From: Candidatus Latescibacterota bacterium
GTDB taxonomy: Bacteria > Latescibacterota > UBA2968 > UBA8231
NCBI GenBank assembly: GCA_965215195.1
Contig: CBDCDC010000002.1
Location: 2,368,001-2,432,000 of the forward strand
Direction of reading: 5' to 3'
DNA length: 64,000 bases
The notes below the pieces were generated by a model, which saw nothing but the letters and a program-made list of their open reading frames with translations, was not told where the DNA came from and did not search any database. Positions 1 through 14,905 of the stretch are shown here, one piece after another. Each line of letters starts with the position of its first letter. Positions within the stretch are counted from its first letter, which is position 1. The position numbers and the translations under genes were made by a program.

Positions 1-19
1 GATGGTCAAACTCGAATAG
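1..19 (+). CDS. 3' end (MVKLE*) of a further FG-GAP/FlgD-Ig paralog that starts left of the window
   Basis: ATG GTC AAA CTC GAA TAG at 2-19 plus the downstream flank matches the end of the gene 665..2866. Confidence 0.8.
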
Positions 20-65
20 ACACATGAGTCTATTCTCTCTTCGGCCCAGAAAGGAGGTGTATCCC

Positions 66-149
66 GTGCTCGCAGGTTTGATGCCAAGTCAGCGACCACA
101 ACGGTTCGCTGATCCTTTTCCGACCCTTTTGAGGAGAAATGCATTATGA
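66..149 (+). promoter_or_regulatory. Putative leader uORF (MLAGLMPSQRPQRFADPFPTLLRRNAL) behind an extended Shine-Dalgarno, overlapping the peptide start
   Basis: AGAAAGGAGGTG at 48-59, GTG at 66, TGA at 147-149 overlapping ATG at 146; related copies start at 2913, 21250 and 23529. Confidence 0.5.
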
Positions 150-466
150 AGTCCTTAACGTTTGTTTTCGAGGCGACGCTGCTGGCCCCGCTGGTGGAGT
201 TCGCCACGTCGACCAGCGGCCACGTTGAGCCGCGCCAGGGCTTGGCCTTGGGGTGGTTGGGCAGCGTGGTGGCCGGGCTGGCGGTGGTGTTCGGCACGGC
301 CGACCAGGCGCAGGCCGATCCCTGCAACGAAGGCTGGCACTGCTCCAACGATATGTGCGCCGAGGATCACCATGGAAACGGTCTTGCGGCGTGGGACAGA
401 TACTATGTCCACGATGATGAAAATCACTGCACAAACACGATTAGTTCCTGTAGCTGTCCTCCGTAA
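146..466 (+). CDS. Small secreted Cys-rich peptide / RiPP-like precursor 1
   Basis: GAGGAG RBS; hydrophobic h-region and AQA cleavage motif; 49-aa core with 6 Cys; paralog at 2993. Confidence 0.85.
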   Translation: MKSLTFVFEATLLAPLVEFATSTSGHVEPRQGLALGWLGSVVAGLAVVFGTADQAQADPCNEGWHCSNDMCAEDHHGNGLAAWDRYYVHDDENHCTNTISSCSCPP

Positions 467-538
467 TCTACCATCCGAGTATATCATGGCTGTCCAAATA
501 GGAGGATGGTTCTACAGTAAGTGCTGAGAGGTATAGCC

Positions 539-569
539 CATGTGGCACTCTCGGGCCGGGTGCCACATG
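539..569 (+). promoter_or_regulatory. Intergenic stem-loop between peptide gene 1 and the FG-GAP gene
   Basis: CATGTGGCAC...GTGCCACATG 10-bp inverted repeat; conserved at 3395-3423 and degenerate near 5711-5736. Confidence 0.6.
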
Positions 570-664
570 AGATGTTTATCCTCTGGTCTACTGCGTCTGT
601 CGGGTGGACATAGAGAGGGTACTTGATCAGCTCACACTCCTTCCCTCATTGCTGGAGGTAAACT

Positions 665-2866
665 ATGCGCTACTTGCTCTTAGTCATTTTGTTGTTGGCG
701 GCTCCGCTGGGAGTCTTGGCCATAACGTGGGATTTTGACGACGGCACTACTGGGGGCTGGACCGCCCACGAGAGCTTCTTAGGCGAGCTCAGGGCAGTTA
801 CTCCCACCACAGTGTACAGCGAAGTCGAAGCCGGCGTCTGGCGCATTGCGCCGGTGCCGAATGGGCAGATACCGGCCATTCGCTTGCTCTCGCCGCTGAT
901 AGGGGAAGACTCGGCTCTGTTCGACCGGGTCACCCTCCGGCTGCGCATCCTCCACGATCGCCCCACTGGGGGGAACCTCCTGATGAACTGGTCCAATGCC
1001 GAGTCCCGACGCCGCAAGCAGGAAGACTACAGACTAGACAGCCGGTCGGGGTTTTATACGCTCCGTTATCAATACTATCCCATCGACTGGGAAAACGTCA
1101 CGATAGATATACGCGGCTTGGAAGCCGGGGCGGAAGCGAGACGACAAGAGCCGATTGCGACCATTTGGGCGGACACGGCGATCACTTGGCAGGACACCCT
1201 TTTCCACTTGCAGCTAGACCTCAACGTAAACCGCGACCCCCAGGGTCCGGCCGATCATCCGGCCTTTGTCGAAGTCGATTGGATTCAACTGACGGGGGCT
1301 GAAGAGCTGCTGTTCGGGGAATTGCCGCCCCGGGCGGTCGCCGGGGCGGCCGGGGGGCCCGGAGCGTTGTTCGCCGAGCCGCGTTTTTCTCTGCTGGGCT
1401 GGAGTATCGGTAGTCCTCCATTCTCGCAAGGTACGTTGGGCGATATAGATGGCGATGGGGATGCCGATCTGGTGGTGGTCTGGACGTACTTTGAGTCCGT
1501 CAAAGTGACCGAAGGGACGTTTGATCGAACGACCCAAGCGGGCTGGACGGTCGCGTCCAGCGACGGGTTGGGTGGCTTGGTTCCCACCCGAGAAGTGCTC
1601 CGCGGAGGCGAAGATCTCATGGGCATTGCGGGGGGCGATTTCAACGGCGATGGGCTTCTTGATCTGGCCTTTCGTGATGGTCGGACCCTCGAATTGTGGC
1701 TCAACCGGGGCGAGGATGGCTTTGAAACCATCCTCCAGCTATCCGACGTCTCTTTCAAAGGCTTAGCCGATGGCGACGGCGACGGCGATGTGGACCTGTT
1801 GGTCAGGGAATACGACGACCGGTTCCATCTACTATCGTCCGAAGTGATTATGTGGCTCAATGACGGTGCGGCTGGGTTTGCCCACCGCGATCGGTTCGTC
1901 CTCGACACCGAAGAAGATTTCACTCCTCGGCTGACGACGGGGCAACCGGTGGGCGAGGCCGTGCGCGTATTGTGGATCCGAGGGATCCGAGGGTGCTATG
2001 CCGGGGAGGCTCGTCTGACCCAGCCATGGGCGGCCAGCGAGCCACCCCCGCTGTTTCTTGACGCCGAGCTCAATCCCTGCGACCTGCAGCTAATCACCGA
2101 TCTGGATGGGGATGGGACGGTGGAGTTGATCGGGACGCCCGAGCGGAATCTATACTTCGACTTTCTTGATGGCATCACCTACCACGGTTTGGCGCTGTGG
2201 CGGGTGGACGCTGCGGGCGGGGTGGAACGCCACACTCTGCTCGGTCCGCAGGTGATGGTGCCGGATGAGAATTATGGTGGGGTCCTTGCCCACGACCTGA
2301 CTGGTGATGGCCTGCTGGACTTGGCCGTGGTGGATGGCAACCCGGCGACGGGGCCGGCACTGATCGTCTTGGTCGGCCAGCGCGATGGGGTGCCTGTCGT
2401 CGAAGGGCGCTACCCCCTGCCGGGCGTGGGCAGCCAAGTGCTCGCCGGCGATGTCAACGGCGATGGGGCGACCGATCTGGTGGTGCTGGGCAGGAGTGTG
2501 GACGGCGGTTTGGGCGGGGCCTTCGTCTTTCTCAACCAGAGCAGTCCGATGACAGCCGTGGCCAGTGAGACCGCGATCACGCCCTCCACCGTTGCCCTCG
2601 GCGCGAACTACCCCAATCCGTTCAATCCGGCCACGACGATCCCCGTATCGGTGGCGGCGGATGCGGGCGACGTGGCCGTAACCATCTACAACGTCTTGGG
2701 GCAGCCGGTGCGCGCGGTGTGGAACGGTCCGTTGGCGGCGGGCGAGCATCGGCTGACGTGGGATGGCCGAGACGGGCAGGGGCAATCCGTCGCCGCCGGA
2801 GTCTATCTGGTGCGGCTGCACCAAGGCGACCACACGCGCCTGCGCAAGATGGTCAAACTCGAATAG
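665..2866 (+). CDS. Secreted CBM-like domain + FG-GAP/VCBS repeats + C-terminal FlgD-Ig-like sorting domain (paralog A)
   Basis: Signal peptide; repeated GDxDGDGxxDL motifs; GANYPNPFNP...WDGRD...AGVY...KMVKLE tail. Confidence 0.9.
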   Translation: MRYLLLVILLLAAPLGVLAITWDFDDGTTGGWTAHESFLGELRAVTPTTVYSEVEAGVWRIAPVPNGQIPAIRLLSPLIGEDSALFDRVTLRLRILHDRPTGGNLLMNWSNAESRRRKQEDYRLDSRSGFYTLRYQYYPIDWENVTIDIRGLEAGAEARRQEPIATIWADTAITWQDTLFHLQLDLNVNRDPQGPADHPAFVEVDWIQLTGAEELLFGELPPRAVAGAAGGPGALFAEPRFSLLGWSIGSPPFSQGTLGDIDGDGDADLVVVWTYFESVKVTEGTFDRTTQAGWTVASSDGLGGLVPTREVLRGGEDLMGIAGGDFNGDGLLDLAFRDGRTLELWLNRGEDGFETILQLSDVSFKGLADGDGDGDVDLLVREYDDRFHLLSSEVIMWLNDGAAGFAHRDRFVLDTEEDFTPRLTTGQPVGEAVRVLWIRGIRGCYAGEARLTQPWAASEPPPLFLDAELNPCDLQLITDLDGDGTVELIGTPERNLYFDFLDGITYHGLALWRVDAAGGVERHTLLGPQVMVPDENYGGVLAHDLTGDGLLDLAVVDGNPATGPALIVLVGQRDGVPVVEGRYPLPGVGSQVLAGDVNGDGATDLVVLGRSVDGGLGGAFVFLNQSSPMTAVASETAITPSTVALGANYPNPFNPATTIPVSVAADAGDVAVTIYNVLGQPVRAVWNGPLAAGEHRLTWDGRDGQGQSVAAGVYLVRLHQGDHTRLRKMVKLE

Positions 2867-2992
2867 ACACATGAGTCTATTCTCTCTTCGGCCCAGAAAG
2901 GAGGTGTATCCCGTGCTCGCAGGTTTGATGCCAAGTCAGCGACCACAACGGTTCGCTGATCCTTTTCCGACCCTTTTGAGGAGGAATGCATT

Positions 2993-3319
2993 ATGAAGTC
3001 TTTGACGTTTGTTTTGGAGGCGACGCTGCTGGCCCCGCTGATGGAGTTCGCCACGTCGACCAGCGGCCACGTGGAGCCGCGCCAGGGCTTGGCCCTCGGC
3101 TGGCTGGGTAGCGTGGTGGCCGGGCTGGCGGTGGTGTTCGGCACGGCCGACCGGGCGCAGGCCGATCCTTGCAACGAAGGCTGGCACTGCTCCGACCCCC
3201 CCGAGGCATGCGAGTGGCATAAAAATGGAAACGTTCTAAAGTCGTGGAACTACTACTATAGCCACAGTCCTACTGATGGCTGTATAAGGTCGTCAAGTTC
3301 CTGTGTCTGTACTCCGTGA
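2993..3319 (+). CDS. Small secreted Cys-rich peptide / RiPP-like precursor 2
   Basis: Leader nearly identical to precursor 1; 51-aa core with 6 Cys; GAGGAG RBS. Confidence 0.85.
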   Translation: MKSLTFVLEATLLAPLMEFATSTSGHVEPRQGLALGWLGSVVAGLAVVFGTADRAQADPCNEGWHCSDPPEACEWHKNGNVLKSWNYYYSHSPTDGCIRSSSSCVCTP

Positions 3320-3517
3320 TCTACCATCCGGGTATATGGTGGCTGTCGCCAAATAGGAGGACGGTGCTGTAGTACATGCTGAGACGTATAGCCCATGTGG
3401 CACTTTAGGGCTGGGTGCCACATCGGCTTTTGGCTTCTGTTCTACTGCGTCTATCCCTCGAATAGAGGTAGGGTGTTTGAGCAGCTAACACTTCTCCACT
3501 GACTCAGGAGGTGCATT

Positions 3518-5704
3518 ATGCGCTGCTTGTTCATTACGATTGGCTTGTTGGCGGCTCCGCTGGGAGCCTTCGGTTTAACGTGGGATTTTGACGAGGGCAC
3601 CACTTGGGGCTGGACCGCCCACGAGAGCGAATTAGGCAATGATGGTGGCGTTCGTCCCACCACGGTGTACAGCGAAGTCGAAGACGGCGTCTGGCGCATT
3701 GCGCCGGTGCCGGTCGCGCAACGACCCGCCATTCGCTTGCTCTCGCCGCTGATAGGGGAAGACTCGGCCCTGTTCGACCAGGTCACCCTGCGGCTACGCA
3801 TCATCCACGACCGCCCCACTTGGGGAAACCTCCTGATGTACTGGTCCAATGGCGAGTCCAGACGCCGCAAGCAGGAAGCGGGCCAACTCGGAAGCAGCAG
3901 GTTGGGGTTTTATACGCTTCGTCTTCAACTCTATCCCATCGAATGGGAAAACATCACGATAGATATACGCGCCTTGGAAGCGGCGGCGGAAGCGAGACGA
4001 CAAGAGCCGGTCGCGACCATTTGGCCGGACACCGCGGTCACGTGGCAGGACACCCTCTTCCACTTGCAACTAGACCTAAACTTAAACCAAGACGCTCAAG
4101 GTCCGGCCGATCATCCGGCCTTTGTCGAAGTCGATTGGATCCAACTGACGGGGGCCGAAGAGTTGCTGCTGGGGGAATTGCCGCCCCGGGCGATTGCCGA
4201 GACTGGGCTACCCGGCGCGTTGTTCGCCGAACCGCGCTTTTCTGTGCTGGGTCCGGGTATCGGTGGCGTATTCTCGCAAGGTGTTTTGGGCGATGTGGAC
4301 GGCGATGGGGATGCTGATCTGGTGGTGGTCTGGAGATACTACACGGTCGTCTGGATAACCGAAGAGACGGTTGAGACGACGTCCCATACGGGCTGGACCA
4401 TAGCGTCCAGCGACGGGTTGGGCGGCTTGGTTCCCACCCGAGAGGTGCTCCTTCCAAGCCAAGACAGGTTCGCGCCCCTCATGGGGATTGCGGGGGGCGA
4501 TTTCGACGGGGATGGGCTTTTCGATCTGGCCTTTGAGGAAGGATTGAACCTTGAACTGTGGCTCAACCGAGGCGAGCATGGCTTTGAAACCATCCTCCAA
4601 CTATCCGACGTCTATTTCAAAGGCTTAGCCGATGGCGACGGCGATGGCGATGTGGACCTGTTGGTCGGGGAGATCGACGACCCATGGTCCAACGTGATTA
4701 TGTGGCTCAATGACGGCGTGGGCGGTTTTGGCCACAGCGATGGGTTCGTCCTCGATACCGAGGAAGAGCTCGGTTCTTTCCTGCTGGCCGGGCAACCGGG
4801 AGGCGAGGCCGTGCGCGTGTTGTGGAACCGACCCTGCTACCAGCCGTTGGGTACTTGGCGGCTGACCCAGCCGTGGGCGGCCAGCGAGCAGTCTCCGCTG
4901 TTTTTTGACGCCGAGGTCAATCCCTGTGACCTGCATCTGCTGACCGATCTGGATGGGGATGGGGCAGTGGAGTTCATCGGGACGCCCGAGCGGAATCTAT
5001 TCTTCGACTTTGATGCGATCACCACCTACCACGGTTTGGCGCTGTGGCGGGTGGACGCTGCGGGCAGGGTGGAACGCCACGACCTGCTCGGTCCGCAGGT
5101 GATGGTGCCGTATGCGGGGGGAGTCCTTGCCCGTGACCTGAGCGGCGATGGCCTGCTGGACTTGGCCGTAGTGGATGTCAACCCGGCGACGGGTCCGGCG
5201 CTGGTGGTGCTGGTCGGCCAGCGCGATGGGGTGCCCGTCGTTGAGGGGCGCTATCCGCTGCCGGGCGTGGGCAGCCAAGTGCTCGCCGGCGATGTCAACG
5301 GCGATGGGGCGACCGATCTGGTGGTGTTGGGCAGGAGTGTGGAAGGGGGCGACGGCGGGGCCTTCGTCTTTCTCAACCAGAGCAGTCCGATGACAGCCGT
5401 AGCGGTTGAGTCGGCCACGCCATCGGCTTTTACCCTCGGCGCGAACTATCCCAATCCATTCAATCCGGCTACGACCCTCCCCGTATCGGTGGCGGCAGAT
5501 GCGGGCGACGTGGCCGTAACCATCTACAACGTCTTGGGGCAGCCGGTGCGCGCGGTGTGGAACGGTCCGTTGGCGGCGGGCGAGCATCGGCTGACGTGGG
5601 ATGGCCGAGACGGGCAGGGGCAATCCGTCGCCGCCGGAGTCTATTTGTATCGGTTGCAGGTGGGCGAGCAGACACGTCTCCGCAAGATGGTCAAACTCGA
5701 ATAG
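3518..5704 (+). CDS. FG-GAP/FlgD-Ig paralog B
   Basis: Same architecture as A; GGAGG RBS. Confidence 0.9.
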   Translation: MRCLFITIGLLAAPLGAFGLTWDFDEGTTWGWTAHESELGNDGGVRPTTVYSEVEDGVWRIAPVPVAQRPAIRLLSPLIGEDSALFDQVTLRLRIIHDRPTWGNLLMYWSNGESRRRKQEAGQLGSSRLGFYTLRLQLYPIEWENITIDIRALEAAAEARRQEPVATIWPDTAVTWQDTLFHLQLDLNLNQDAQGPADHPAFVEVDWIQLTGAEELLLGELPPRAIAETGLPGALFAEPRFSVLGPGIGGVFSQGVLGDVDGDGDADLVVVWRYYTVVWITEETVETTSHTGWTIASSDGLGGLVPTREVLLPSQDRFAPLMGIAGGDFDGDGLFDLAFEEGLNLELWLNRGEHGFETILQLSDVYFKGLADGDGDGDVDLLVGEIDDPWSNVIMWLNDGVGGFGHSDGFVLDTEEELGSFLLAGQPGGEAVRVLWNRPCYQPLGTWRLTQPWAASEQSPLFFDAEVNPCDLHLLTDLDGDGAVEFIGTPERNLFFDFDAITTYHGLALWRVDAAGRVERHDLLGPQVMVPYAGGVLARDLSGDGLLDLAVVDVNPATGPALVVLVGQRDGVPVVEGRYPLPGVGSQVLAGDVNGDGATDLVVLGRSVEGGDGGAFVFLNQSSPMTAVAVESATPSAFTLGANYPNPFNPATTLPVSVAADAGDVAVTIYNVLGQPVRAVWNGPLAAGEHRLTWDGRDGQGQSVAAGVYLYRLQVGEQTRLRKMVKLE

Positions 5705-5833
5705 ACACATTGGCACTCTAGGGCCGGATGCCACATGGACTAATGGTCCTCTGTTCTACTGCGTCTATCCCTCGAATACGAATGGAGGTAGGGCGTTTGA
5801 TCGGCTCACACTCCCCCACTCTGGAGGTGCATT

Positions 5834-8038
5834 ATGCGCTACTTGCTCACTACGATTGGCTTGTTGTCGGCACCACTTGGAGCCTTCGCTTTAACGTGGG
5901 ATTTTGACGAGGGGACAACTTGGGGCTGGACCGCCTACGAGAGCATCTTAGGCAATCTCAGTTCAGTTACTCGCACCACGGTGTACAGCGAAGTCGAAGC
6001 TGGCGTCTGGCGCATTGCGCCGGTGCCGAATGGGGAAAGACCGGCCATTAGCTTACTCTCGCCGCTGATAGGGGAAGACTCGGCTCTGTTCGACCGGGTC
6101 ACCCTCCGGCTGCGCATCCTCCACGATCGCCCCACCGGGGGGAACCTCCTGATGAACTGGTCCAATGCCGAGTCCCGACGCCGCAAGCAGGAAGACTACA
6201 GACTAGCCAGCCGGTCGGGGTTTTATACGCTCCGTCCTCAACTCTATCCCATCGAATGGGAAAACGTCACGATAGATATACGCGCCTTGGAAGCCGCGGC
6301 GGAAGCGAGACGACAAGAGCCGATTGCGACCATTTGGGCGGACACGGCGATCACTTGGCAGGACACCCTCTTCCACGTGCAGCTAGACCTAAACTTACAC
6401 ACCAACCCCCAGGGTCCGGCCGATCATCCGGCCTTTGTCGAAGTCGATTGGATTGAACTGACGGGGGCTGAAGAGTTGCTGTTCGGAGAATTGCAGCCCC
6501 GGGCGATCGCCGAGGCCGGGTTGCCCGGGGCGTTGTTCACCGAGCCGCGTTTTTCTGCTTTGGGCCCGAGTATCGGTAGCTCATCCTCGCAAGGTACGTT
6601 GGGCGATGTAGATGGCGATGGGGATGCCGATTTGGTGGTGGTTTGGACCCACGACACGGTCGTCAAAGTGACCGAAGAGACGTTTGAGAGGACGACTCAA
6701 GCGGGCTGGACCATAGCGGCCAGCGACGAGTTGGGCGGTTTGATCCCCACCCGAGAGGTGCTTCTTCTAGGCGAAGATCGCTTGGGGATTGCGGGGGGCG
6801 ATTTCGATGGCGATGGGCTGCTCGATCTGGCCTTTATTGAAGGTACTCAGGGTATTAATCAGACCCTCGAATTGTGGCACAATCGGGGCGAGCAGGGCTT
6901 TGAAACCATCCTCCAGCTATCCGACATCTATTTCGAAGGCCTCGCCGATAGCGACGGCGACAGCGATGTGGACCTGTTGGTCGGGGAGTACGACGAGCTA
7001 CGGGACGAGCTAGTATGGTCGCAGGTGATTATGTGGATTAACAACGGCGCGGCCGGGTTTGCCGACCGCAATCGGTTCGCCGTCGGCAGCGAAGAAGATC
7101 TCTTGCCTTTCCTGCTGGCAGGGCAGCCGTTGGGCGAGGCCGTGCGCCTGTTGTGGCTGCGACCCTGCTACCAGCCTCAGGGGCTTTGGCGGCTGACCCA
7201 GCCGTGGGCGGCCAGCCAGCCCTCCCCGCTGTTTTTTGACGCCGAGGTCAATCCCTGCAACTTGCACCTGCTGACCGATCTGGATGGGGATGGAGCGGTG
7301 GAGTTGGTTGGGTCGCCCGAGCGGGATCTATTCTCCAACTTTGATGCTGGCTCCACCTACCACGGTTTGGCGCTGTGGCGGGTGGATGCCTCGGGCGAGG
7401 TGGAACGCCACGACCTGCTCGGTCCGCAGGTGCTCGTGCCGGATGAGAATTATGGTGGGGTCCTTGCCCGCGACCTGACTGGCGATGGCCTGCTGGACTT
7501 GGCCGTAGTGGATGTCAACCCGGCGACGGGGCCGGCGCTGGTGGTGCTGGTCGGCCAGCGCGATGGGGTGCCTGTCGTCGAGGGGCGCTATCCCCTGCCG
7601 GGCGTGGGCAGCCAAGTGCTCGCCGGCGATGTCAACGGCGATGGGGCTGTTGATCTGGTGGTGCTGGGCAGGAGTGTGGACGGCGGTCTCGGCGGGGCCT
7701 TCGTCTTTCTCAACCAGAGCAGTCCGCCTACAGCCGTAGCGGTTGAGTCGGCCACGCCATCGGCTTTTGCCCTCGGCGCGAACTATCCCAATCCATTCAA
7801 TCCAGCCACGACCCTTCCCGTATCGGTGGCGGGTGCGGGCGACGTGGCCGTAACCATCTACAACGTCTTGGGGCAGCCGGTGCGTCAAGTATGGAACGGT
7901 CCGCTGGCGGCGGGCGAGCATCGGCTGACGTGGGATGGCCGAGACGGGCAGGGGCAGCCGGTCGCGGCCGGGGTCTATCTGGTGCGGCTGCACCAAGGCG
8001 ACCACACGCGCCTCCGCAAGATGGTCAAACTCGAATAG
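5834..8038 (+). CDS. FG-GAP/FlgD-Ig paralog C
   Basis: Same architecture as A; GGAGG RBS. Confidence 0.9.
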   Translation: MRYLLTTIGLLSAPLGAFALTWDFDEGTTWGWTAYESILGNLSSVTRTTVYSEVEAGVWRIAPVPNGERPAISLLSPLIGEDSALFDRVTLRLRILHDRPTGGNLLMNWSNAESRRRKQEDYRLASRSGFYTLRPQLYPIEWENVTIDIRALEAAAEARRQEPIATIWADTAITWQDTLFHVQLDLNLHTNPQGPADHPAFVEVDWIELTGAEELLFGELQPRAIAEAGLPGALFTEPRFSALGPSIGSSSSQGTLGDVDGDGDADLVVVWTHDTVVKVTEETFERTTQAGWTIAASDELGGLIPTREVLLLGEDRLGIAGGDFDGDGLLDLAFIEGTQGINQTLELWHNRGEQGFETILQLSDIYFEGLADSDGDSDVDLLVGEYDELRDELVWSQVIMWINNGAAGFADRNRFAVGSEEDLLPFLLAGQPLGEAVRLLWLRPCYQPQGLWRLTQPWAASQPSPLFFDAEVNPCNLHLLTDLDGDGAVELVGSPERDLFSNFDAGSTYHGLALWRVDASGEVERHDLLGPQVLVPDENYGGVLARDLTGDGLLDLAVVDVNPATGPALVVLVGQRDGVPVVEGRYPLPGVGSQVLAGDVNGDGAVDLVVLGRSVDGGLGGAFVFLNQSSPPTAVAVESATPSAFALGANYPNPFNPATTLPVSVAGAGDVAVTIYNVLGQPVRQVWNGPLAAGEHRLTWDGRDGQGQPVAAGVYLVRLHQGDHTRLRKMVKLE

Positions 8039-8059: not shown

Positions 8060-10558
8060 ATGCTGGATAAATTGCGCCAACACATAGCGACTACCTTGCA
8101 GCGTTTGAGCGTCCGGCTAGAACGAGCCGGTACGGTTGAAGGGCTGCCGCGCCACGAGTGTCCCGTATTGATCTTTTTCCACGGCGATAGCTTGGCCCAT
8201 ACCATACGTCCTCTAGTCGTGGGACGAGCGCTGCGGGCGCGTGGCTATCCCGTCGAATTCGCGGGGGTGGGGCCTCACGCAGACCGAATCGCCGCTGAGG
8301 GGTTTCAAGTGTACGCGGTAGAAACCATGCCGCAAAGCCGCATGGATGAGTACGTGGCCCGCAGCGACTACGGCTACTACAATGCGGAGTGGATAGACCG
8401 CTGTGTACAAGCCGAACGCGCCCTCATCCGGCAACTTCGTCCTGCCCTCGTGCTGGCGGATATGCGGCCCACCTTGCCGCTCACCGCCTCCCTTGAAGGG
8501 GCGGACATAGCTCTGATTGAGGCGGCTTACAACCAACCGGGCTATCCTTTCCCCATTCGCCTGCCCACGGCCTTTTCTTTGGGCACCGAGCCCTTCGACG
8601 CATACGCTCACAACCACATCTCAACTTTCAAGCCACATCACACCCTCTACTTGGTGGCCGATGTGCCCCAGTTCCATCCACCGGGTGAAGATACCCCGTC
8701 TCACTACTGCTATGTGGGGCCACTGATCGAGTCGCCGCCACCCCGCCCTATCGCGGAGTTGGACGATTGGGATGATTCGTTACCACTGGTCTATTTCAAC
8801 TGCGGCAGCACCGGCGCTCATCCCGGCTTCCTCGACGAGGCGCTGTGCCGCATGGCCAACAAACCCTACCGCGTTCTGGTGACCACAGCGGGTCGTTGGG
8901 CAGGACAGGTAGAGACCCCCAATATCCGCGTCGCCGACTTCGTGCCCGCGGCTTGGGTGTTGGCGCGTGCGGCGCTCTTCGTCGGTGTGGGCGGCATTGG
9001 TTCCATCTATCACGCCTTGCGCCAAGGCGTGCCCGTGATCGGCGCACCCGAGCGCTTGGACCAGGAGTACCACCTCAACCGAGTGCATAACCTCGGTCTA
9101 GGATGCAAGCTCAACTGGGATGCGTTCCTCCGAGTGGATCCCCTGTTGGAGGCCATAGACGACCTTCTATCTCGGAGCGACGAGTTCGCTCCGCGCTGCC
9201 AAGCCCTTGCCGCACACATCGGGAAGTGGGACGGGGGCGAGGCCGCAGCCGATGCGGTGGACGCCTTTTTTGTAGGCCAGCATTCCGCCCACCAGATAGA
9301 GACGGCCTATCGGATGCCCGAGCCCGAATTTATCCACTATCTCAACCTGAGCACCCCGGCCGACCTCGGCGTTGAGGAGATCCGCACCTTACTTCACCGC
9401 AATCTGAGCCGCGGTCTGCCGCACATCCGACAGGGCAGCAAGATCGCCTTTGACCGGGCGGATTCTTGGAACTGGCTCTACGATCACGAGCCTGTGTTCT
9501 TTGAAAGCGATTATCGCGCCCACGAAGAGAAACGCCGCCGCTTTTTCCATTCTGTGAATGGCCACATCGCGCTGCACCGGAATCGTCAGCGCTACCGCCT
9601 CACCTATACGTATCGGCTCTACCCATCGACTTTGCCGCCCGATGTCAGCACCCGGCTCTTTCTGCCCTATCCCATACCTAGTCCACATCAAGGAGATATC
9701 GAGTTGCGCACCTGTGCGCCGGACGATCTGCGCACGTGCTTTGTGCCGCAGGCCGGTTTTTTTTACGGCTATCCCGTCCGGGCGGAGGAAGCCGCTCCAG
9801 CCTCGGTGGATTTTTCCTACACCTGTGAGTTGACCGTGCAGGGGCGTATCGGACCAACGGCCCCGGCTTCGCTGTCGGCTGGCGAATACCGCCGCTATAG
9901 CGAGATCGATCCCAAGCTGGCGCAAGAAGCGGTAGTCAAAAACTTTTTTGCCGAATTGGACTTGGATGGAGTAGAAGACCCGTTGGAAAAGGCGCGTCGC
10001 ATCTACGTCCAATTGGCCAAGACCAAGCGTTTCAAAAAAACCAAGGAGCCATCGCAGGACTTGGCCTCTTGCATCCACATGGTGTTGAACGACAATGGCG
10101 GCCACTGCATAACCTTGTCCAATACCTTTATCGTCCTCTGCCGCCTACAGGGGATCGCGGCGCGGCAGGTCACCGGGGCCCTAACGGGCTATCCCGTCGG
10201 CGAGGGTCGTTTTGCGATGGCGGTCTATAACGAGATTCTCTTCGGGCACACTTGGGCGGAAGTGTTTGCGCCGGGGCGCGGTTGGGTGCCGGTGGAGTTT
10301 CACGGCATTGTCATTGGTCCGCAGGCGGCGACGGAGGACAATGTTGCTGACGAAGCCCTGCGCCGCCATATCGCCGAAGTCGGCAGTCGCTATGTCGATT
10401 TTTACTTTGGCCAGTTGGATTGCCACCGCGTGGTGTGTTCCAATTCGGTCAAGACCCTACCGCAACTGTTGGCTCGGCACGAGACCGCATCCGGGCCACA
10501 ATTCCACATGCCGGAGGGCTTACAATACGAGTGCCAGCTCGTCATGGAGTGCCTCTGA
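8060..10558 (+). CDS. GT-B (GT1/MGT-like) glycosyltransferase fused to a C-terminal transglutaminase-like domain
   Basis: AHTIRPL, LVYFNCGST, DFVP...GGIGSIYHAL..GVP..DQ (GT1-like); GGHCITLS...LCRLQGIAAR...GHTWAEVFAPGRGWVPVE (transglutaminase core). Confidence 0.8.
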   Translation: MLDKLRQHIATTLQRLSVRLERAGTVEGLPRHECPVLIFFHGDSLAHTIRPLVVGRALRARGYPVEFAGVGPHADRIAAEGFQVYAVETMPQSRMDEYVARSDYGYYNAEWIDRCVQAERALIRQLRPALVLADMRPTLPLTASLEGADIALIEAAYNQPGYPFPIRLPTAFSLGTEPFDAYAHNHISTFKPHHTLYLVADVPQFHPPGEDTPSHYCYVGPLIESPPPRPIAELDDWDDSLPLVYFNCGSTGAHPGFLDEALCRMANKPYRVLVTTAGRWAGQVETPNIRVADFVPAAWVLARAALFVGVGGIGSIYHALRQGVPVIGAPERLDQEYHLNRVHNLGLGCKLNWDAFLRVDPLLEAIDDLLSRSDEFAPRCQALAAHIGKWDGGEAAADAVDAFFVGQHSAHQIETAYRMPEPEFIHYLNLSTPADLGVEEIRTLLHRNLSRGLPHIRQGSKIAFDRADSWNWLYDHEPVFFESDYRAHEEKRRRFFHSVNGHIALHRNRQRYRLTYTYRLYPSTLPPDVSTRLFLPYPIPSPHQGDIELRTCAPDDLRTCFVPQAGFFYGYPVRAEEAAPASVDFSYTCELTVQGRIGPTAPASLSAGEYRRYSEIDPKLAQEAVVKNFFAELDLDGVEDPLEKARRIYVQLAKTKRFKKTKEPSQDLASCIHMVLNDNGGHCITLSNTFIVLCRLQGIAARQVTGALTGYPVGEGRFAMAVYNEILFGHTWAEVFAPGRGWVPVEFHGIVIGPQAATEDNVADEALRRHIAEVGSRYVDFYFGQLDCHRVVCSNSVKTLPQLLARHETASGPQFHMPEGLQYECQLVMECL

Positions 10559-10559
10559 G

Positions 10560-11636
10560 ATGGATATTTCCGTGGTCATAGCCACCCATAACCAGCAGGA
10601 ACGGCTGCGGCTGGTGTTAGCCGGATTGCGCGGCCAGACTGCGCCGACTGGGCGCTTTGAAGTGGTGGTCGTGGATGACGGCTGTAGCGATGGGACGGCT
10701 GAGATGCTCGACGAGGTGGGTCGCCAGATGGACCTAAAGGTCGTTCGCCTGCGGCCCAACGAAGGGCGCTGTGTAGCTCGCAACCGGGGAGTGGAGGCCG
10801 CAACGGGAGAATTTGTCGCCTTCTTGGACGGGGACGCCCTGCCGCATCCACAGTGGATCCAACGCCATATCGAAGCCCTAAAACAAGGCGGGCGGGAGTC
10901 CCTGTTGTGTGGTGCCGAATACAGCTTGCCCGACTTGGAGTATCTACAAGATCCCCAACGTGGTATGCCAATGGAGGACAAGACGCCGAGCGTCGTGCGC
11001 GAGTACTGCCACGTCCACCGGCCGGCGTTGATCTTGACGGAGGACATGATCCTCAAAGCCTTTGACCCTATCGAAGCCCGCGCCGTGCTCGGCGGGTATC
11101 CCTTTCCCGAACTTGAGACCATGCAGGAACAGATCGCCGATCTTTTTGTCCAACACCCCGATTCTCCTATTGGTTGGATGGGCTTTTTCCCGCACAACGG
11201 CATGGTTGCTAGGGAGGCTTTTTTAGCGGTGGGTGGTTTTGATCCCGCCATGGCCTTTAGCGAAGGCTGGGACCTAGCATATCGACTGCAACGACGCGGC
11301 TGTCGGCCCTACTTTGTACCCGCGGCCAAGACCTATCACCTCTATCACTACCACGACTTTTCTGACCCGCTCAAGGCGCATGAGGAGACGCTTGCTCCCC
11401 AGCGGGCTGTGCAGTACATGGAGCAAAAATACGGCGATCCCAAGTTGCTGCTATTTCACTTCTGGTACGCCAGTATCTGGCCGGACCCCTTCCTACCCGA
11501 AGAGACGTTGCTGGAAGACTTGGTAGCATTTCACCATGCCTACGCGCACGAGCCTACCAGCCGACTGCGCGATCTGCGGATATTGTTGGATCATCACCCA
11601 CGATGGGCCGAACCGAGCGGAGCGCAAATCCCATGA
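10560..11636 (+). CDS. GT2 family glycosyltransferase
   Basis: MDISVVIATHN, VVDDGCSD, ARNRG, AFLDGD, GGFD..SEGWDL; start 1 nt after the upstream stop (the ORF track start at 10212 is too long). Confidence 0.9.
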   Translation: MDISVVIATHNQQERLRLVLAGLRGQTAPTGRFEVVVVDDGCSDGTAEMLDEVGRQMDLKVVRLRPNEGRCVARNRGVEAATGEFVAFLDGDALPHPQWIQRHIEALKQGGRESLLCGAEYSLPDLEYLQDPQRGMPMEDKTPSVVREYCHVHRPALILTEDMILKAFDPIEARAVLGGYPFPELETMQEQIADLFVQHPDSPIGWMGFFPHNGMVAREAFLAVGGFDPAMAFSEGWDLAYRLQRRGCRPYFVPAAKTYHLYHYHDFSDPLKAHEETLAPQRAVQYMEQKYGDPKLLLFHFWYASIWPDPFLPEETLLEDLVAFHHAYAHEPTSRLRDLRILLDHHPRWAEPSGAQIP

Positions 11637-13525
11637 AGTTGCCAACGTCAGCCGTGAGACATGCCCTGCGAGCCGGTGGGTTGGTCGCGTTGATAGCCCT
11701 GTCGTTGCTGCATCCTTCACACCTTAGTGCCTTCACTTGGGATTTTGCTCAGGAAGGCGATACCGAGGGTTGGGTCGCTTGGGAAAGTGATGCTTCGGGT
11801 GCGGTAATCAGAGCACCGCTGCATTCGGAAACAGCCGACGGAGTATGGCGCGTTGCTCCCCGGGATTTTGCGCCCGGTACTAGGCCGATCGTCGAATTGA
11901 TCTCCCCGTCAATTGGCCGCGATTCGGCCCTATTCAACCGCGTTCGCATTCGCCTGCGCGTACTGCATACGCAACCGCTTGAGAGTCAGATTTCGCTTCT
12001 CTGGAAGAATCCCGCTAACAAGAACCTCCGAGGATTCTTTATCAACGCGCAGCCGGGAACGGGGATTGATCATATCACCTTGCTCAAAAGCCAACGCCAT
12101 ATCTACACGGCCGATTGGCAGGAGGTGACGATTGATAGTGTGGCTTCCAAGACCTACGTAAGAGGGGACAAGGTATATCGGCGTGTCTGGGAAGATGAAT
12201 TGCTGGAAATACGCCTTCGTCTGCCCTTGTTCAACTACTCGAAGGACGTGGAGGGACCGGGGGAAATCCCCGAGGCGGTGGAAATTGATTGGATCGAGTT
12301 GACCCATGCGGAAAGGCCAGCTTTAGAGATCGCGCCGCCGAGAGGGGAAGAGCCGTACCCTGTCGGAACGCTCTTTGCCCTACCGCTTTTCTATCCTTTA
12401 GAGGTGCATGGATTGGACATAGGACAGCGCGGCCGGCCCGTAGCCGAATTGGGGGATCTGGATGGCGATGGCGACGTGGATATGGCGGCGGTATGGGAAA
12501 ACTGGCAGCCTAGGACTCATTCCGGCAGGGCTGGTTGGCTGTGCGCGTTCAATGAAGATGGCCGTTTCTCTCCAAAGGTCCGCATAGAACCATTCCCCGA
12601 AATCGGTCCCATCCCGAGGCTGGCCGGTGCTGATTTGCTCGGCGATGACCGCATGGAACTCATCGTGGGTTTTGGTCGTTCACTCGACCTATTGGCGCAT
12701 TCATCCGCCGGCTGGTCGGTGGCGCGGCATATGGATAGGGCAATTCCCTTGGGTATCGGCGATGTCGATGGGGATGGCGACGAGGATATATGGCTGACCG
12801 AGTTGTACTCCAAGACTTCGGTACGTGCCGTCATTTTGCTCAATGACGGGGAGGGACAGTTCGACGAACAAATGGCTCTGGCACCGGAGTTGGGCGAGTT
12901 CGATTGGATTCCCATGCGTCTGATCCACCATGTCCCAAGCGGCCGCAAGACGGGATTGCTTTGGGGCGGCCCGGATGTGGGCACTCCGCATGACTACATG
13001 GCGACTTATCTGGACGACCATGGGGCAACCATCCAAGAGTATCTCCGAGTGGATGCGGCGGCCGATTTGATCTGCTATGCAGGCGATTTTGATCGGGATG
13101 GAGATACCGATATGGTGGCGGGCAGGGCCGTCACCTCTACGACGATAGGCTCTGTGCCCACAGTGCTCACCGGGCTGGATCTTTTAATCAACCGAGGCGA
13201 CGGCGTCTTGGACAAGGTCGCATGGTACGAAGGGAGTTACGTGCAACAGGACGTGGTGTTTTCCGACCTCAATGAAGATGGTCTGTTGGACGCGGTATTT
13301 GTCGATCGCGATTTCCGCCAGCCGGCCCTCGTCGTCAGTATGGGAAGCAAGAATGGAGTGCCACTGCGGGAAGGCCACTATCCACTGCAAGGGTTGGGCG
13401 GAACGGTCATAAGCGGCGATGTGGATGGAGACGGGGACCTAGACTTGGCCGTGCTGGAAAATGCCGTGCGCGGTGGGGGTAGTGGCCTATACATCCTGTC
13501 CAACCAAACCAAAACGGACGATTGA
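11633..13525 (+). CDS. Divergent CBM-like/FG-GAP paralog D lacking the FlgD-Ig tail
   Basis: TWDFAQEGDTEGW, EIDWIEL, FG-GAP motifs; ends ILSNQTKTDD; ATGA overlap with GT2. Confidence 0.85.
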   Translation: MKLPTSAVRHALRAGGLVALIALSLLHPSHLSAFTWDFAQEGDTEGWVAWESDASGAVIRAPLHSETADGVWRVAPRDFAPGTRPIVELISPSIGRDSALFNRVRIRLRVLHTQPLESQISLLWKNPANKNLRGFFINAQPGTGIDHITLLKSQRHIYTADWQEVTIDSVASKTYVRGDKVYRRVWEDELLEIRLRLPLFNYSKDVEGPGEIPEAVEIDWIELTHAERPALEIAPPRGEEPYPVGTLFALPLFYPLEVHGLDIGQRGRPVAELGDLDGDGDVDMAAVWENWQPRTHSGRAGWLCAFNEDGRFSPKVRIEPFPEIGPIPRLAGADLLGDDRMELIVGFGRSLDLLAHSSAGWSVARHMDRAIPLGIGDVDGDGDEDIWLTELYSKTSVRAVILLNDGEGQFDEQMALAPELGEFDWIPMRLIHHVPSGRKTGLLWGGPDVGTPHDYMATYLDDHGATIQEYLRVDAAADLICYAGDFDRDGDTDMVAGRAVTSTTIGSVPTVLTGLDLLINRGDGVLDKVAWYEGSYVQQDVVFSDLNEDGLLDAVFVDRDFRQPALVVSMGSKNGVPLREGHYPLQGLGGTVISGDVDGDGDLDLAVLENAVRGGGSGLYILSNQTKTDD

Positions 13526-13570
13526 ATAGGGGGGCGCGTGTTAGGTGCTGCCGAAAAGAGAGGGCATAAG

Positions 13571-14905
13571 ATGATAAGACGGCCATGGAAAGTCCCATTC
13601 CGAAAAAATAGAAAGCTGCAAAGCTGCTTGGCGGTGTCGCTGGCCTTGCATCTGCTGGTGATCTTCGGACTCCCGCGCCACGAGCGGATCACCCACTTTC
13701 CCGTCCAACCGCCGATCATGGTGAAGTTTACCAAGAAGCGCCCGCTGCCGCGCACCCTCGCCCGCCGCCAACGGCCCCAGCAACGCCCGTTGGTGCGCCG
13801 CCCCGCCCTGCAAGCGGCCCCGGTCGTGGCCATGCGGCCGGCGCCGTCGGCGACGCGCCCGCTACCGGTGTTCAAGTCGTCGGCTCTCCGACTGCCAACG
13901 GCGGCACTGCCGGCGCGGCTGGTGCTGCCCGTGCCGGATTTCCCCGCTCGGCACATTGGTCCTCACCTACAGGCGGGGGCGTTGGAAGGGACGCGGCAAG
14001 GGGCCGACGAGATTGACTTGGCGTTGGAACTGATGGATGTGGAAGCGATGGACACGGGTCAGCACCGGGCGATGGTGGTCGTCGATCCAAAAGACCGGCG
14101 TCAGCTCAAGGGCTTTCTCTATTTGTCGAGTGTCCACAGCGAAGCGCTTGAGCGCGCCGAGGCCAGCGCGGCTTCGGAGCGCAGCGGGGGGTGGTCGCGC
14201 AGCATCGCCGAGCAGCGCATGCTGCAGGGGCTCGCCGACAAAATGAGCGAGCGCACCGGCGTACATACCCAAGTGCTCGACGGCCTCGCCTTGGACGACC
14301 CGCGGCTGATGCAGGTGCCGTTTCTGTTGCTGACGGTTCGGAGCCAAGTCGCCTTCACCCAAGCCGAAGCCAAAAACTTGGGACGTTATCTAACCTCGGG
14401 CGGGTTCCTCTATGCGGATATTGTCTCCCAGCCTCTCTCTCGCGCGGGCGGCTATCAACACGACTTGCCGGCGTTGCGCGATTTCATTCGCCAAGCCTTT
14501 GGGCAGATAGACTACGCCGAACACAAAGATTGGTCTTTCGTGCGGTTGCCGCCCGAGCACCCGCTCTACCATTGCTTCTACGACGTGGACTCCCTGCCGC
14601 GCGGTTTCTGGGACATCATGTTCTGGTATTGGAACACTGGGAGTCGCTTTGAATTGTCGCCCAATTACTTGGAGGGCATTGAGGTGGATGGCCGTATCGT
14701 GGGAGTTTACTCGCAGAAGTGCTACGCGGAAATGTGGGCTGGCGAGGCCGAGCGGATCCGCGAGGCGGATCGGGCTGCCGACAAAGCCGGTCGTTTTGAC
14801 ACGGGCGCGGATGAGTTGCCGGTCTATGACCTCGGCGTCAATATCGTGGTGTACGCCCTGACGCGCGAGGGATCATTGGCTCAACAGTTCGTCGAGGCGG
14901 ACTGA
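13571..14905 (+). CDS. Membrane-anchored DUF4159-like protein 1 with Pro/Arg-rich linker
   Basis: N-terminal TM helix (SLALHLLVIF); PFLLLT..EA.NL..YL.SGGFL, HPLYHCFYD, LGVNIVVYALT. Confidence 0.8.
   Translation: MIRRPWKVPFRKNRKLQSCLAVSLALHLLVIFGLPRHERITHFPVQPPIMVKFTKKRPLPRTLARRQRPQQRPLVRRPALQAAPVVAMRPAPSATRPLPVFKSSALRLPTAALPARLVLPVPDFPARHIGPHLQAGALEGTRQGADEIDLALELMDVEAMDTGQHRAMVVVDPKDRRQLKGFLYLSSVHSEALERAEASAASERSGGWSRSIAEQRMLQGLADKMSERTGVHTQVLDGLALDDPRLMQVPFLLLTVRSQVAFTQAEAKNLGRYLTSGGFLYADIVSQPLSRAGGYQHDLPALRDFIRQAFGQIDYAEHKDWSFVRLPPEHPLYHCFYDVDSLPRGFWDIMFWYWNTGSRFELSPNYLEGIEVDGRIVGVYSQKCYAEMWAGEAERIREADRAADKAGRFDTGADELPVYDLGVNIVVYALTREGSLAQQFVEAD

Follow-up and report, generated by a model that had tools for sequence, protein, structure and literature searches.

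Near the start of a 64,000-nucleotide stretch of a Candidatus Latescibacterota genome (the window, on whose + strand all features located below lie), two small genes encode proteins that share almost the same 57-residue leader and then diverge abruptly in cysteine-rich cores. What kind of protein would combine so constant a leader with such variable cores, and what might the leader be for?

A family of small proteins with conserved leaders and variable cores

Precursor 1 (146-466, 106 aa) consists of a leader (146-316, with the Gly32 codon at 239-241 and the codons of an AQA motif at 308-316) and a core (317-463); precursor 2 (2993-3319, 108 aa) has its leader at 2993-3163 and its core at 3164-3316, and each core contains six Cys. 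Both ORFs end in C-x-C-x-P. They were found as the sequence-only reading had given them, its core strings agreeing with the translations letter for letter, and the translations confirmed the near-identical 57-aa leaders and divergent six-Cys cores that it described. Precursor 1 had no Pfam or NCBIfam match. DNA alignment also bore out that the two tandem units are near-identical as far as the codons for WHCS and then diverge with indels: the near-identical part runs from ~105 nt ahead of the ORF through the leader to the 11th codon of the core, with 11 nucleotide differences between the leaders, 7 synonymous and 4 not (NG86). After the diverged rest of the core, the 3' intergenic DNA is visibly more alike again, so that the non-coding DNA flanking the core has diverged less than the core itself. 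Shortly before the window begins there is a third tandem copy (genome C2:2365309-2365632).

The conserved 5' block of precursor 1 (41-145) contains a hairpin at 88-113 (stem of ~10 bp; −13.9 kcal/mol and z −3.3 by folding) and a ribosome-binding site, GAGGAG, at 131-136; that of precursor 2 spans 2888-2992, with its hairpin at 2935-2960. Only one position of the block varies between the three tandem copies, even though the upstream flank of copy 1 is unrelated, and it is kept in 19 copies from the source genome and others; the hairpin stem shows compensatory double changes at 2 pairs among the 16 copies compared. In the gap between the small and the large gene, a terminator-like hairpin (539-569; 12-bp stem followed by a T-rich tail; −22.4 kcal/mol, z −2.3) has its stem present in all three tandem copies, where copy 1 shows a compensatory change. 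The second copy of this hairpin occupies 3390-3428 (−24.3 kcal/mol, z −3.0 by folding). Both cores recur with 0-1 differences in contigs from 4 public runs, core 1 (330-529) in 3 of them and core 2 (3137/3139-3465) in all 4; the runs come from one study and at most 3 samples, possibly including the source sample, and their coverage is therefore not independent support for the two cores.

The same leader occurs on 184 database proteins (matches at E ≤ 1 in one database search), so the leader/core pattern is not due to chance; 76 representatives had E ≤ 0.001 among 1.84 billion proteins. Mean identity was ~84% for leaders and ~36% for cores in 600 random pairs from the 120 members listed, none of which has a Cys in the leader and 110 of which have an even number of Cys in the core. 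The source genome carries 11 family genes, nine at E ≤ 2e-6 and two weaker ones with the motif visible in their translations. Across the phylum Latescibacterota the small gene was found in 27 of 168 genomes, all 27 in one family. This is a lineage-specific, multigene family of small proteins without existing annotation.

Core fold and divergence

AlphaFold2 modelled core residues 60-106 with a pLDDT of ~90 and strands at 63-73, 79-90 and 94-104. The core of ~50 aa is thus confidently predicted to be a three-stranded antiparallel sheet with freely varying loops, and we infer that 2-4 disulfides staple it. Across the family, conservation is complete or at least 90% at C60, C71, C95, C102 and H89; the other His are not conserved. 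Within the genome, core dN/dS ranged from 0.88 to 1.87, the values over 1 (4 of 6 pairs) being point estimates on 49 codons per pair, and leader dN/dS from 0 to 0.5. Core dS (0.24-0.36) was similar to that of the adjoining large gene (0.29-0.33), whose dN/dS was ~0.33-0.44. Across genomes, the median dN/dS of 55 usable pairs was 0.67 in the core against 0.15 in the leader. The predicted sheet, the conserved Cys columns and the core-to-leader dN/dS comparison uphold the earlier idea of a fixed Cys scaffold with diversified loops. In copies 1 and 2, leader dS was 0.02 and core dS 0.32, and part of the within-genome sameness of leader and 5'UTR therefore looks like gene conversion.

The leader as an export signal

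At the cytoplasmic edge of its hydrophobic segment the leader carries the motif F-x-x-S-x-S-G...P-R-x-G|L-x-L-G-W, whose conserved Gly gives it the form of a putative prepilin-type (class III) cleavage site. Gly (167 of 179) or Ala (8 of 179) occupies position -1, directly before the hydrophobic stretch, and G32 does not vary in any of 113 sequences; at +5, 153 of 179 members have Trp and none has the Glu of class III signals. The n-region is 32 aa long in the window copies and ~20 aa in distant-leader paralogs; the excerpted text of PMC4471445 gives 6-26 aa for the hydrophilic part of class III leaders. Models of prepilin N-termini yielded no NCBIfam match at E ≤ 0.1, and PF07963 (N_methyl) had 0 matches in the genome.

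At the periplasmic edge stands a small-x-small site, AQA|D, with Q56 and A57 at least 90% conserved and residue 55 small. It reads as a signal peptidase I site, at which cleavage would free the core, and AxA-type sites are also present in diverged relatives. The leader has the n/h/c layout and the small residues at -3/-1 of a Sec class I signal, its 57-aa length being atypical. In 17 of 18 longer relatives, leader and core(s) are joined to a T9SS C-terminal domain (TIGR04183 34.2 bits, cut-off 23, in a long paralog of the source genome), so the leader must carry proteins over the inner membrane. PorU is present in the source genome (628.6 bits). ORFs 146-466 and 2993-3319 lack a T9SS sorting domain (TIGR04183 / PF18962 / FlgD_ig-like), and the short forms have no known outer-membrane crossing signal.

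Export via Sec or a degenerate Tat signal had been proposed from the sequence; export stands, carried by the leader at the head of T9SS cargo, and the degenerate Tat signal is not supported. At the place of the twin arginines the dipeptide is RR in 16 of 179 leaders, RQ in 88 and RE in 28, and the h-region, with a mean Kyte-Doolittle value of 1.95, is strongly hydrophobic, where a Tat signal would have a mildly hydrophobic one. We accordingly give hardly any credence to Tat-exported or periplasmic metal-binding Cys/His proteins, even with TatC in the genome, five His in core 1, and a long leader with a Gly in its h-region and frequent Arg in its c-region. The metal binding once suggested by those five His is not supported either, H89 being the sole conserved one; moreover, the hypervariable loops are unlike metal sites, and the even Cys counts point to disulfides.

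Gene context of the small genes

Just upstream of the window (genome C2:2362317-2365181), a four-gene cassette encodes a prepilin-type aspartyl peptidase of family A24, a membrane-anchored RnfG-like flavoprotein containing a CxxC motif and two membrane-anchored thioredoxin-fold proteins (Pfam: A24, a weak FMN_bind and AhpC/TSA-Redoxin twice). The order A24, flavoprotein, thioredoxin, thioredoxin, small gene recurs in 11 of 14 related loci from 9 assemblies. The source genome contains two further sets, a second copy and, at 36-38% identity, a third paralogous cluster beside distant-leader small genes. At distant A24 loci (26-35% identical, two other GTDB families included), a leader-type Cys-rich small ORF was near 10 of 12, adjoining the A24 gene in nine and ~3.4 kb off in one; at the other 2 of 12 no small gene was detectable. 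Among the 168 phylum genomes, 25 had both small gene and A24, two the small gene only and seven A24 only; in all three A24-only genomes that were looked at, a small gene was found. For the suggested role of the extra n-region in recognition by an enzyme, conserved synteny thus supplies a candidate in the dedicated A24 peptidase.

Downstream of precursor 1 lies the gene of a 733-aa protein that combines FG-GAP repeats with a C-terminal T9SS type A domain (665-2866; Pfam FG-GAP_3 and FlgD_ig; TIGR04183 34.6 bits, cut-off 23). In 13 of 14 related loci the small gene is likewise followed by a paralog of this protein. A 728-aa FG-GAP/T9SS paralog (3518-5704) is paired in the same way with precursor 2, and the third such paralog of the window (5834-8038) has no preceding small gene. 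Then come two conserved locus members, a GT1-type glycosyltransferase/transglutaminase-like fusion (GT1-TGase; 8060-10558, by Pfam and translation) and a GT2 family glycosyltransferase (10212-11636, PF00535), whose true start is uncertain because its ORF overlaps the preceding gene, and two further ones, an FG-GAP protein (11603-13525) and a DUF4159 protein (13538-14905). Lacking an N-terminal signal, the fusion is read as cytoplasmic; 9 of 14 related loci have it downstream of the small gene, and a 37% identical paralog is found in the diverged cluster of the source genome.

This arrangement bears on an alternative in which the family would be ordinary Sec-secreted small proteins with a long class I signal, alike by gene conversion or recent duplication, and the cassette, always inside FG-GAP/DUF4159 arrays, might serve other proteins of the locus such as those of FG-GAP/T9SS type instead of the small genes. 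The universal AxA site before the core agrees with it, as do the lower dS of leader than of core within the genome and the near identity of copies 1 and 2 over 5'UTR and leader. We nevertheless consider it rather unlikely: the leader is conserved across genomes too, where its dS of 0.45 and omega of 0.15 indicate selection on the leader protein; it has invariant residues at the n/h boundary and in the h-region that an ordinary signal peptide does not need; diverged cassettes keep A24 beside small genes despite changed gene order; and the large proteins bear ordinary short signal peptides. The AxA site alone would suffice for export, so the leader is a candidate A24 substrate only.

The A24 peptidase and the redox set

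The A24 protein scored 30.7 bits against PF01478 (cut-off 26.5). All 33 sequences compared share D33 and G92-D93-A94-K95, which supply the two catalytic Asp, one in each; that of the second stretch belongs to a GxGD-type motif. The subfamily is narrow (51 matches at E ≤ 1e-10), and sequence search found no solved relative. Only two A24 genes occur in the source genome, both in these clusters. A predicted complex of A24 with leader residues 1-64 scored 0.58, the best of three controls scoring 0.00, with at least 90% of contacts in agreement between runs and a partner pLDDT of at least 64; the model lends weak support to binding. Of 80 solved complexes 58 reached the mark used, as did 2 of 110 mismatched pairs, and scores of 0.60 or less came from only 7 of the 80 solved complexes and from both mismatches that passed, counts that apply only roughly here because the A24-leader complex was built with alignments made for this analysis.

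An A24 enzyme beside a leader with Gly at -1 followed by ~18-20 hydrophobic residues recalls type IV pilin-like or Flp-like subunits, in which A24 would remove the n-region, the hydrophobic helix would build a filament and the core would be its variable head; the pairing of a constant N-terminus and a variable head with disulfide bonds also resembles pilins as described in the excerpt of PMC4471445. We regard such filaments as very improbable here. The T2SSE/PilB-type assembly ATPase (PF00437) had 0 matches among 48 scored candidates in the source genome, in a search whose control was positive in 13 of 14 genomes, and exceeded the cut-off in only 4 of 18 A24-positive genomes of the genus. The +5 Glu and the N_methyl motif are absent, a conserved AxA site separates helix and core, and the same leader heads T9SS cargo. 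Both catalytic Asp motifs and the Gly at -1 before ~20 hydrophobic residues are as in class III signals and their peptidases (definition in the excerpted PMC4471445), whereas Trp at +5, the longer n-region of the window copies, the putative signal peptidase I site after the helix, the genome without an assembly ATPase and a Cys-rich mini-domain as cargo set the present system apart. The nearest non-filament precedent in that excerpt is that of archaeal sugar-binding proteins with class III signals (PMC4471445).

In the flavoprotein, D-G-x-S-G-A-T and C109/C112 are kept in 13 of 13 sequences. Its model (pLDDT 78.8) matched RnfG chains in Foldseek (E 7e-5 and 7e-4, probability 1.00). [S/T]GA[S/T] is given as a flavinylation motif in the excerpted PMC8238504, and by motif and predicted RnfG/NqrC-like fold the protein fits the class of ApbE-flavinylated FMN-binding domains, its Pfam FMN_bind score of 18.6 lying below the cut-off of 22. 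All NCBIfam matches of the thioredoxin-like proteins and the flavoprotein were under cut-off. No Pfam match to DsbA (DSBA), DsbB or VKOR was found in the source genome, which is 95.2% complete. The two thioredoxin-fold proteins are ResA/TlpA-like and membrane-anchored. Proteins of the ResA/TlpA type are usually reductants.

Comparison with known precursor families

The conserved GT1-TGase and GT2 genes raise the question of RiPP-like precursors, whose n-region would recruit a cytoplasmic modifier before export and disulfide formation, for example for a conceivable glycocin-like glycosylation by GT1-TGase or GT2. Glycocin/sublancin clusters, as presented in the excerpt of PMC6405829, likewise pair a small precursor with conserved leader and disulfide-stapled core (predicted here) with glycosyltransferase gene(s), two dedicated thiol-disulfide oxidoreductases and a dedicated leader peptidase. 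However, those systems have a double-glycine leader and a C39 ABC transporter, neither of which was seen here, where the leader is a hydrophobic export signal, the peptidase an A24 intramembrane aspartyl protease, the redox set includes a flavoprotein and the host is an FCB-group diderm. Pfam searches of 23 neighbouring proteins turned up none of the known RiPP enzymes, such as those of radical SAM, YcaO or lanthipeptide type. The PDB relatives of GT2 are polysaccharide and lipid-linked GT2 enzymes, and with no SunS-named entry among its 35 PDB matches it lacks specific likeness to a peptide glycosyltransferase, so that glycosylation is conjectural. The genome also has GT1-TGase paralogs at other sites, near which no small gene was detected, and the core is a confidently predicted folded domain, found inside T9SS cargo too. 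We therefore judge RiPP-like precursors improbable.

Conotoxin, defensin and legume NCR families combine a conserved signal or pre-region, a hypervariable mature peptide, a fixed even Cys framework and multigene arrays. Mussel MgCRP-I shares this organisation with the present family as far as the excerpted PMC4558851 describes it. Unlike all of these, the family is bacterial and encodes putative maturation enzymes beside its peptide genes, and no sequence or fold match links them. Laterosporulin, a bacterial defensin-like bacteriocin (~49 aa, three disulfides), is comparable in size and disulfide-rich beta structure; its Foldseek match was at chance level (ranks 42 and 50, E ~2, target-normalised TM-score 0.41), and it is leaderless according to its PDB title and without sequence similarity to the family. 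Prochlorosins are numerous lanthipeptide precursors with one conserved leader and hypervariable cores in one genome, their leaders being cytoplasmic recognition sequences for a lanthipeptide synthetase and their crosslinks thioethers. The present family has the same one leader on many hypervariable cores per genome, but no lanthipeptide synthetase among the neighbouring proteins scanned.

A proposed maturation route and its meaning

Tat export, pilins, metal binding and classical RiPPs are thus disfavoured. The reading that we prefer, at slightly better than even odds (about 0.55), is that of exported, disulfide-folded, diversified mini-proteins with a two-site leader and dedicated A24/flavin/thioredoxin processing. 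It draws on directly computed results: the sequence pattern, the size of the family, the predicted fold, the synteny and which pathways were or were not found. The leader would be inserted via Sec, its n-region trimmed or cleared by the A24 enzyme, and the core freed by signal peptidase I; the flavin/thioredoxin set would then form or shuffle the core disulfides, and the product may serve beyond the cytoplasm as a diversified ligand for binding or antagonism. The same domain would be displayed through T9SS on long paralogs. Of this sequence of steps we infer the two cleavages, the formation of disulfides, the direction of the redox chemistry and the biological target.

The family resembles animal toxin and defensin gene families in a bacterium, and the chief new result is its gene context, with small genes beside their own membrane peptidase and thiol-redox enzymes. 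More tentatively, the locus may represent an unrecognised bacterial route of peptide maturation, in which filament-uncoupled A24 leader processing and flavin-thioredoxin oxidative folding without DsbA/DsbB/VKOR would yield a conotoxin-like, positively selected library of disulfide-rich mini-proteins acting outside the cell.

Tandem small genes with near-identical leaders and divergent cores

The source assembly (6.13 Mb in 2 contigs, 95.2% complete, 8.5% contamination) carries, at the start of the window, two small ORFs at 146–466 (106 aa) and 2993–3319 (108 aa) whose translations agree exactly with the two precursors described in the sequence-only reading. Each gene has a GAGGAG ribosome-binding site 9 nt ahead of its ATG and is followed by a hairpin and then by a gene for a ~730-aa FG-GAP repeat protein that ends in a T9SS C-terminal domain. 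Shortly before the window begins there is a third small gene (positions 2365309–2365632 of the same contig, C2), and the window itself starts inside the end of another large gene of the FG-GAP/T9SS type. Alignment of the three units revealed near-identity over ~105 nt of 5′ flank and on through the leader to core codon 11; copy 1 shares it despite the unrelated DNA found further upstream. The remainder of the core has diverged, indels included, and conservation is visibly higher in the 3′ spacer and the large gene than in the core.

A hairpin in the 5′UTR (88–113 and 2935–2960) showed limited covariation. The strong hairpin after each small gene (539–569 and 3390–3428) is kept, with compensatory change, and would fit a higher output of the small gene relative to the large one. 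Rfam comparison of window positions 1–6000 returned only a chance-level snoRNA row, and a sigma-70 scan of the + strand found nothing. A sigma-54 activator gene sits upstream, and we also sought a sigma-54 promoter (GG-N10-GC) in the conserved 5′ block; this candidate was dropped because its spacing varies by indels among copies, and the DNA preceding the small genes yielded no convincing sigma-54 promoter.

The surrounding region (665–27177) is a long array of ~710–760-aa FG-GAP/T9SS paralogs (starts at 665, 3518, 5834, 15118, 19065, 21290 and 23569), interleaved with three DUF4159 proteins (13538, 17686 and 25873). The third large paralog (5834–8038) begins only 129 nt after the second, with no small gene in the interval (5705–5833). 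Contigs from public runs join position 602 to 5814, which suggests either similar spacers or a strain-variable arrangement. The search for RNA data among public runs returned no dataset, a result that is neutral as to expression. The genome has at least 50 matches to the C-terminal portion of the PorU model; these resemble T9SS cargo domains.

Selection on leader and core

Leader and core were compared by dN/dS, as proposed in the sequence-only reading. Nei-Gojobori estimates among four close paralogs gave a dN/dS of 0.88–1.87 for the core (dS 0.24–0.36; above 1 in 4 of the 6 pairs) and of 0–0.5 for the leader (dS 0.02–0.23), with ~0.33–0.44 for the adjacent large gene (dS 0.29–0.33, dN 0.11–0.13). 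Because core dS matches that of the adjacent large gene, the cores are not hypermutated; amino-acid changes in them appear to be accepted at or above the neutral rate, as judged from dN/dS estimates. A diversity-generating retroelement was considered as the source of the variation and set aside on the pattern of the core differences, which include indels and show no visible restriction to a single base.

Leader dS is low, and the 5′UTR of the three copies varies at a single position; together these indicate some gene conversion in the leader and 5′UTR, which explains the break in identity 11 codons into the core. In the comparison across genomes, with 19 genes and 55 usable pairs, the core had a median dN/dS of 0.67 and the leader one of 0.15; with leader dS at 0.45, the leader value shows that leader conservation reflects selection on the protein.

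A lineage-restricted family of hypervariable mini-proteins

The small proteins have no Pfam or NCBIfam model, and our literature searches yielded no description of their family. A database search retrieved 184 relatives at E ≤ 1, all labelled 'hypothetical', and a profile search of 1.84 billion representatives gave 76 at E ≤ 0.001. Of 17 related genome loci, 16 have Latescibacterota or Latescibacteria in their titles and the other Gemmatimonadota; among 10 distant representatives, only one carries a taxonomic label, Candidatus Latescibacterota. Within the phylum, 27 of 168 genomes had a match, all from one GTDB family, and a local profile search recovered diverged members in two further GTDB families. 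The source genome encodes 11 members: 7 short forms and 4 long forms, the latter carrying a T9SS domain behind one or two cores.

Among 120 listed relatives, mean identity is 84% for leaders and 36% for cores. None has a Cys in the leader, and 110 have 4, 6 or 8 Cys in the core; across the family, conservation is complete or at least 90% for four Cys columns and one His. The small proteins form an unannotated family of hypervariable Cys-rich mini-proteins, restricted to one lineage and putatively exported, and are encoded with a thiol-redox set and an A24 peptidase that would be dedicated to them. The pattern first noticed in two precursors is real, and larger than that reading had seen.

An AlphaFold2 model built with 113 sequences predicted the core as three long antiparallel strands (pLDDT ~90), supplying the structure prediction that the sequence-only reading had proposed; the leader was of low confidence, with a helix at residues 38–55. 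Foldseek comparison of the core with the PDB listed 369 matches at E ≤ 10, none of them reaching E ≤ 0.001; the ESM Atlas gave no usable match, and a PDB sequence search only chance-level rows. In another genome (G102, locus L075), two ~130-aa ORFs (11891–12283 and 12896–13297, both on the − strand) adjoin an A24 gene without a detectable leader-type gene. Both carry a short signal peptide of the ordinary kind, and the Cys-rich C-terminus of one is similar to the core of family member P0201; cores may therefore be borne by other N-terminal parts.

A conserved cassette next to the small genes

Upstream of the first small gene, a sigma-54 activator (C2:2358874–2362017, upstream of the window; 1047 aa, with Reg_prop/Y_Y_Y sensor repeats) heads a cassette (C2:2362317–2365181) encoding, in this order, an A24 peptidase (372 aa; PF01478 at 30.7 bits, cut-off 26.5), a membrane-anchored flavoprotein (205 aa, weak FMN_bind match) and two membrane-anchored AhpC/TSA-Redoxin proteins that have CxxC motifs and a weak likeness to ResA and MauD. 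The same gene order is retained in 11 of 14 related loci (9 assemblies). An FG-GAP/T9SS paralog lies downstream of the small gene in 13 of these loci and a GT1-transglutaminase gene in 9; homologs of the activator occur upstream in 6 (57–83% identity), with weaker matches (30–40%) in 4 more. The source genome has a second, near-identical cassette copy and a third cluster with the same genes, 36–38% identical, beside small genes with a more distant leader form. Even at distant A24 loci (26–35% identical), a leader-type Cys-rich small ORF was close by in 10 of 12, adjoining the A24 gene in 9 and ~3.4 kb off in 1; one such locus has three of them in tandem. In P0121 and P0144, from other assemblies, part of the A24 peptidase is fused in frame to the leader end and core. 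These fusions look like deletions between neighbouring genes, or assembly or gene-calling artefacts, and they show the two genes adjacent once more.

Both catalytic Asp motifs of the A24 enzyme are kept in 33 of 33 relatives. Its subfamily appeared narrow in the database search, and the only two A24 genes of the source genome lie within these clusters. We found neither a PilB/GspE-type ATPase nor a prepilin N-terminal motif in this genome, which leaves the enzyme without a conventional substrate; across the genus, 18 genomes are A24-positive and only 4 of these have the ATPase. The n-region/hydrophobic boundary of the leader has Gly in 167 and Ala in 8 of 179 members, followed by L-x-L-G-W. 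Measured against the published definition of a class III site (PMC4471445), the leader agrees in its Gly at −1 and its hydrophobic tract but differs in its Trp at +5 and long n-region. That the small proteins are pilins, as an A24 partner might imply, is disfavoured by the missing ATPase. A predicted complex of the A24 enzyme with leader residues 1–64 scored 0.58 (best control 0.00), lending weak support to their pairing. An AxA-type site stands just before the core in every member, and use of T9SS requires that the long forms be released. The leader would have two sites, one for A24 processing at the n/hydrophobic boundary and one for AxA cleavage before the core. TatC and PorU are present in the genome; Tat-type export, raised in the sequence-only reading, is disfavoured, RR occurring in 16 of 179 members.

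A putative thiol-redox relay and the role of the cores

The flavoprotein keeps its flavinylation motif and CxxC in 13 of 13 sequences, and its structural model matches RnfG. In genome G052, the flavoprotein gene of one diverged cassette is directly adjoined by an ORF (L066:11373–12464, − strand) that appears ApbE-like (flavin transferase) by eye. Pfam searches of the source genome for DsbA, DsbB and VKOR, these families only, gave no match. The simplest reading of these genes is a thiol-redox relay dedicated to the cores, which could run in either direction. Plain secretion of the small proteins, with the cassette serving other proteins, seems to us unlikely.

For the mini-proteins themselves we favour an extracytoplasmic binding or antagonistic function. 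Metal binding, suggested earlier by the His of the first core, fits poorly with a family in which only one His (H89) is conserved. Classical RiPP chemistry is likewise disfavoured, since no known RiPP enzyme appeared among the Pfam matches of the 23 neighbouring proteins scanned. Glycocin-like glycosylation may occur, as two glycosyltransferase genes are conserved in the locus. The GT2 protein was considered as a SunS-like peptide glycosyltransferase and rejected, none of its 35 PDB matches being named SunS. Its longest ORF (10212–11636) overlaps the GT1-transglutaminase fusion ORF (8060–10558) by 347 nt; its start is probably further downstream than 10212, as the GT2 Pfam domain is reached only at residue 120.

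If this favoured role and maturation route are correct, the family would be a bacterial counterpart of the hypervariable disulfide-framed peptides of animal venoms and of plant and animal immunity. As the maturation genes adjoin the peptide genes, co-expression could then probe the pathway in its entirety. The substrates of bacterial A24 peptidases would widen beyond pilins, giving a job to an enzyme that, in these genomes without filament machinery, otherwise has none. The cassette would constitute a self-contained flavin/thioredoxin oxidative-folding module, and the core a compact three-strand scaffold with naturally diversified loops for peptide engineering.
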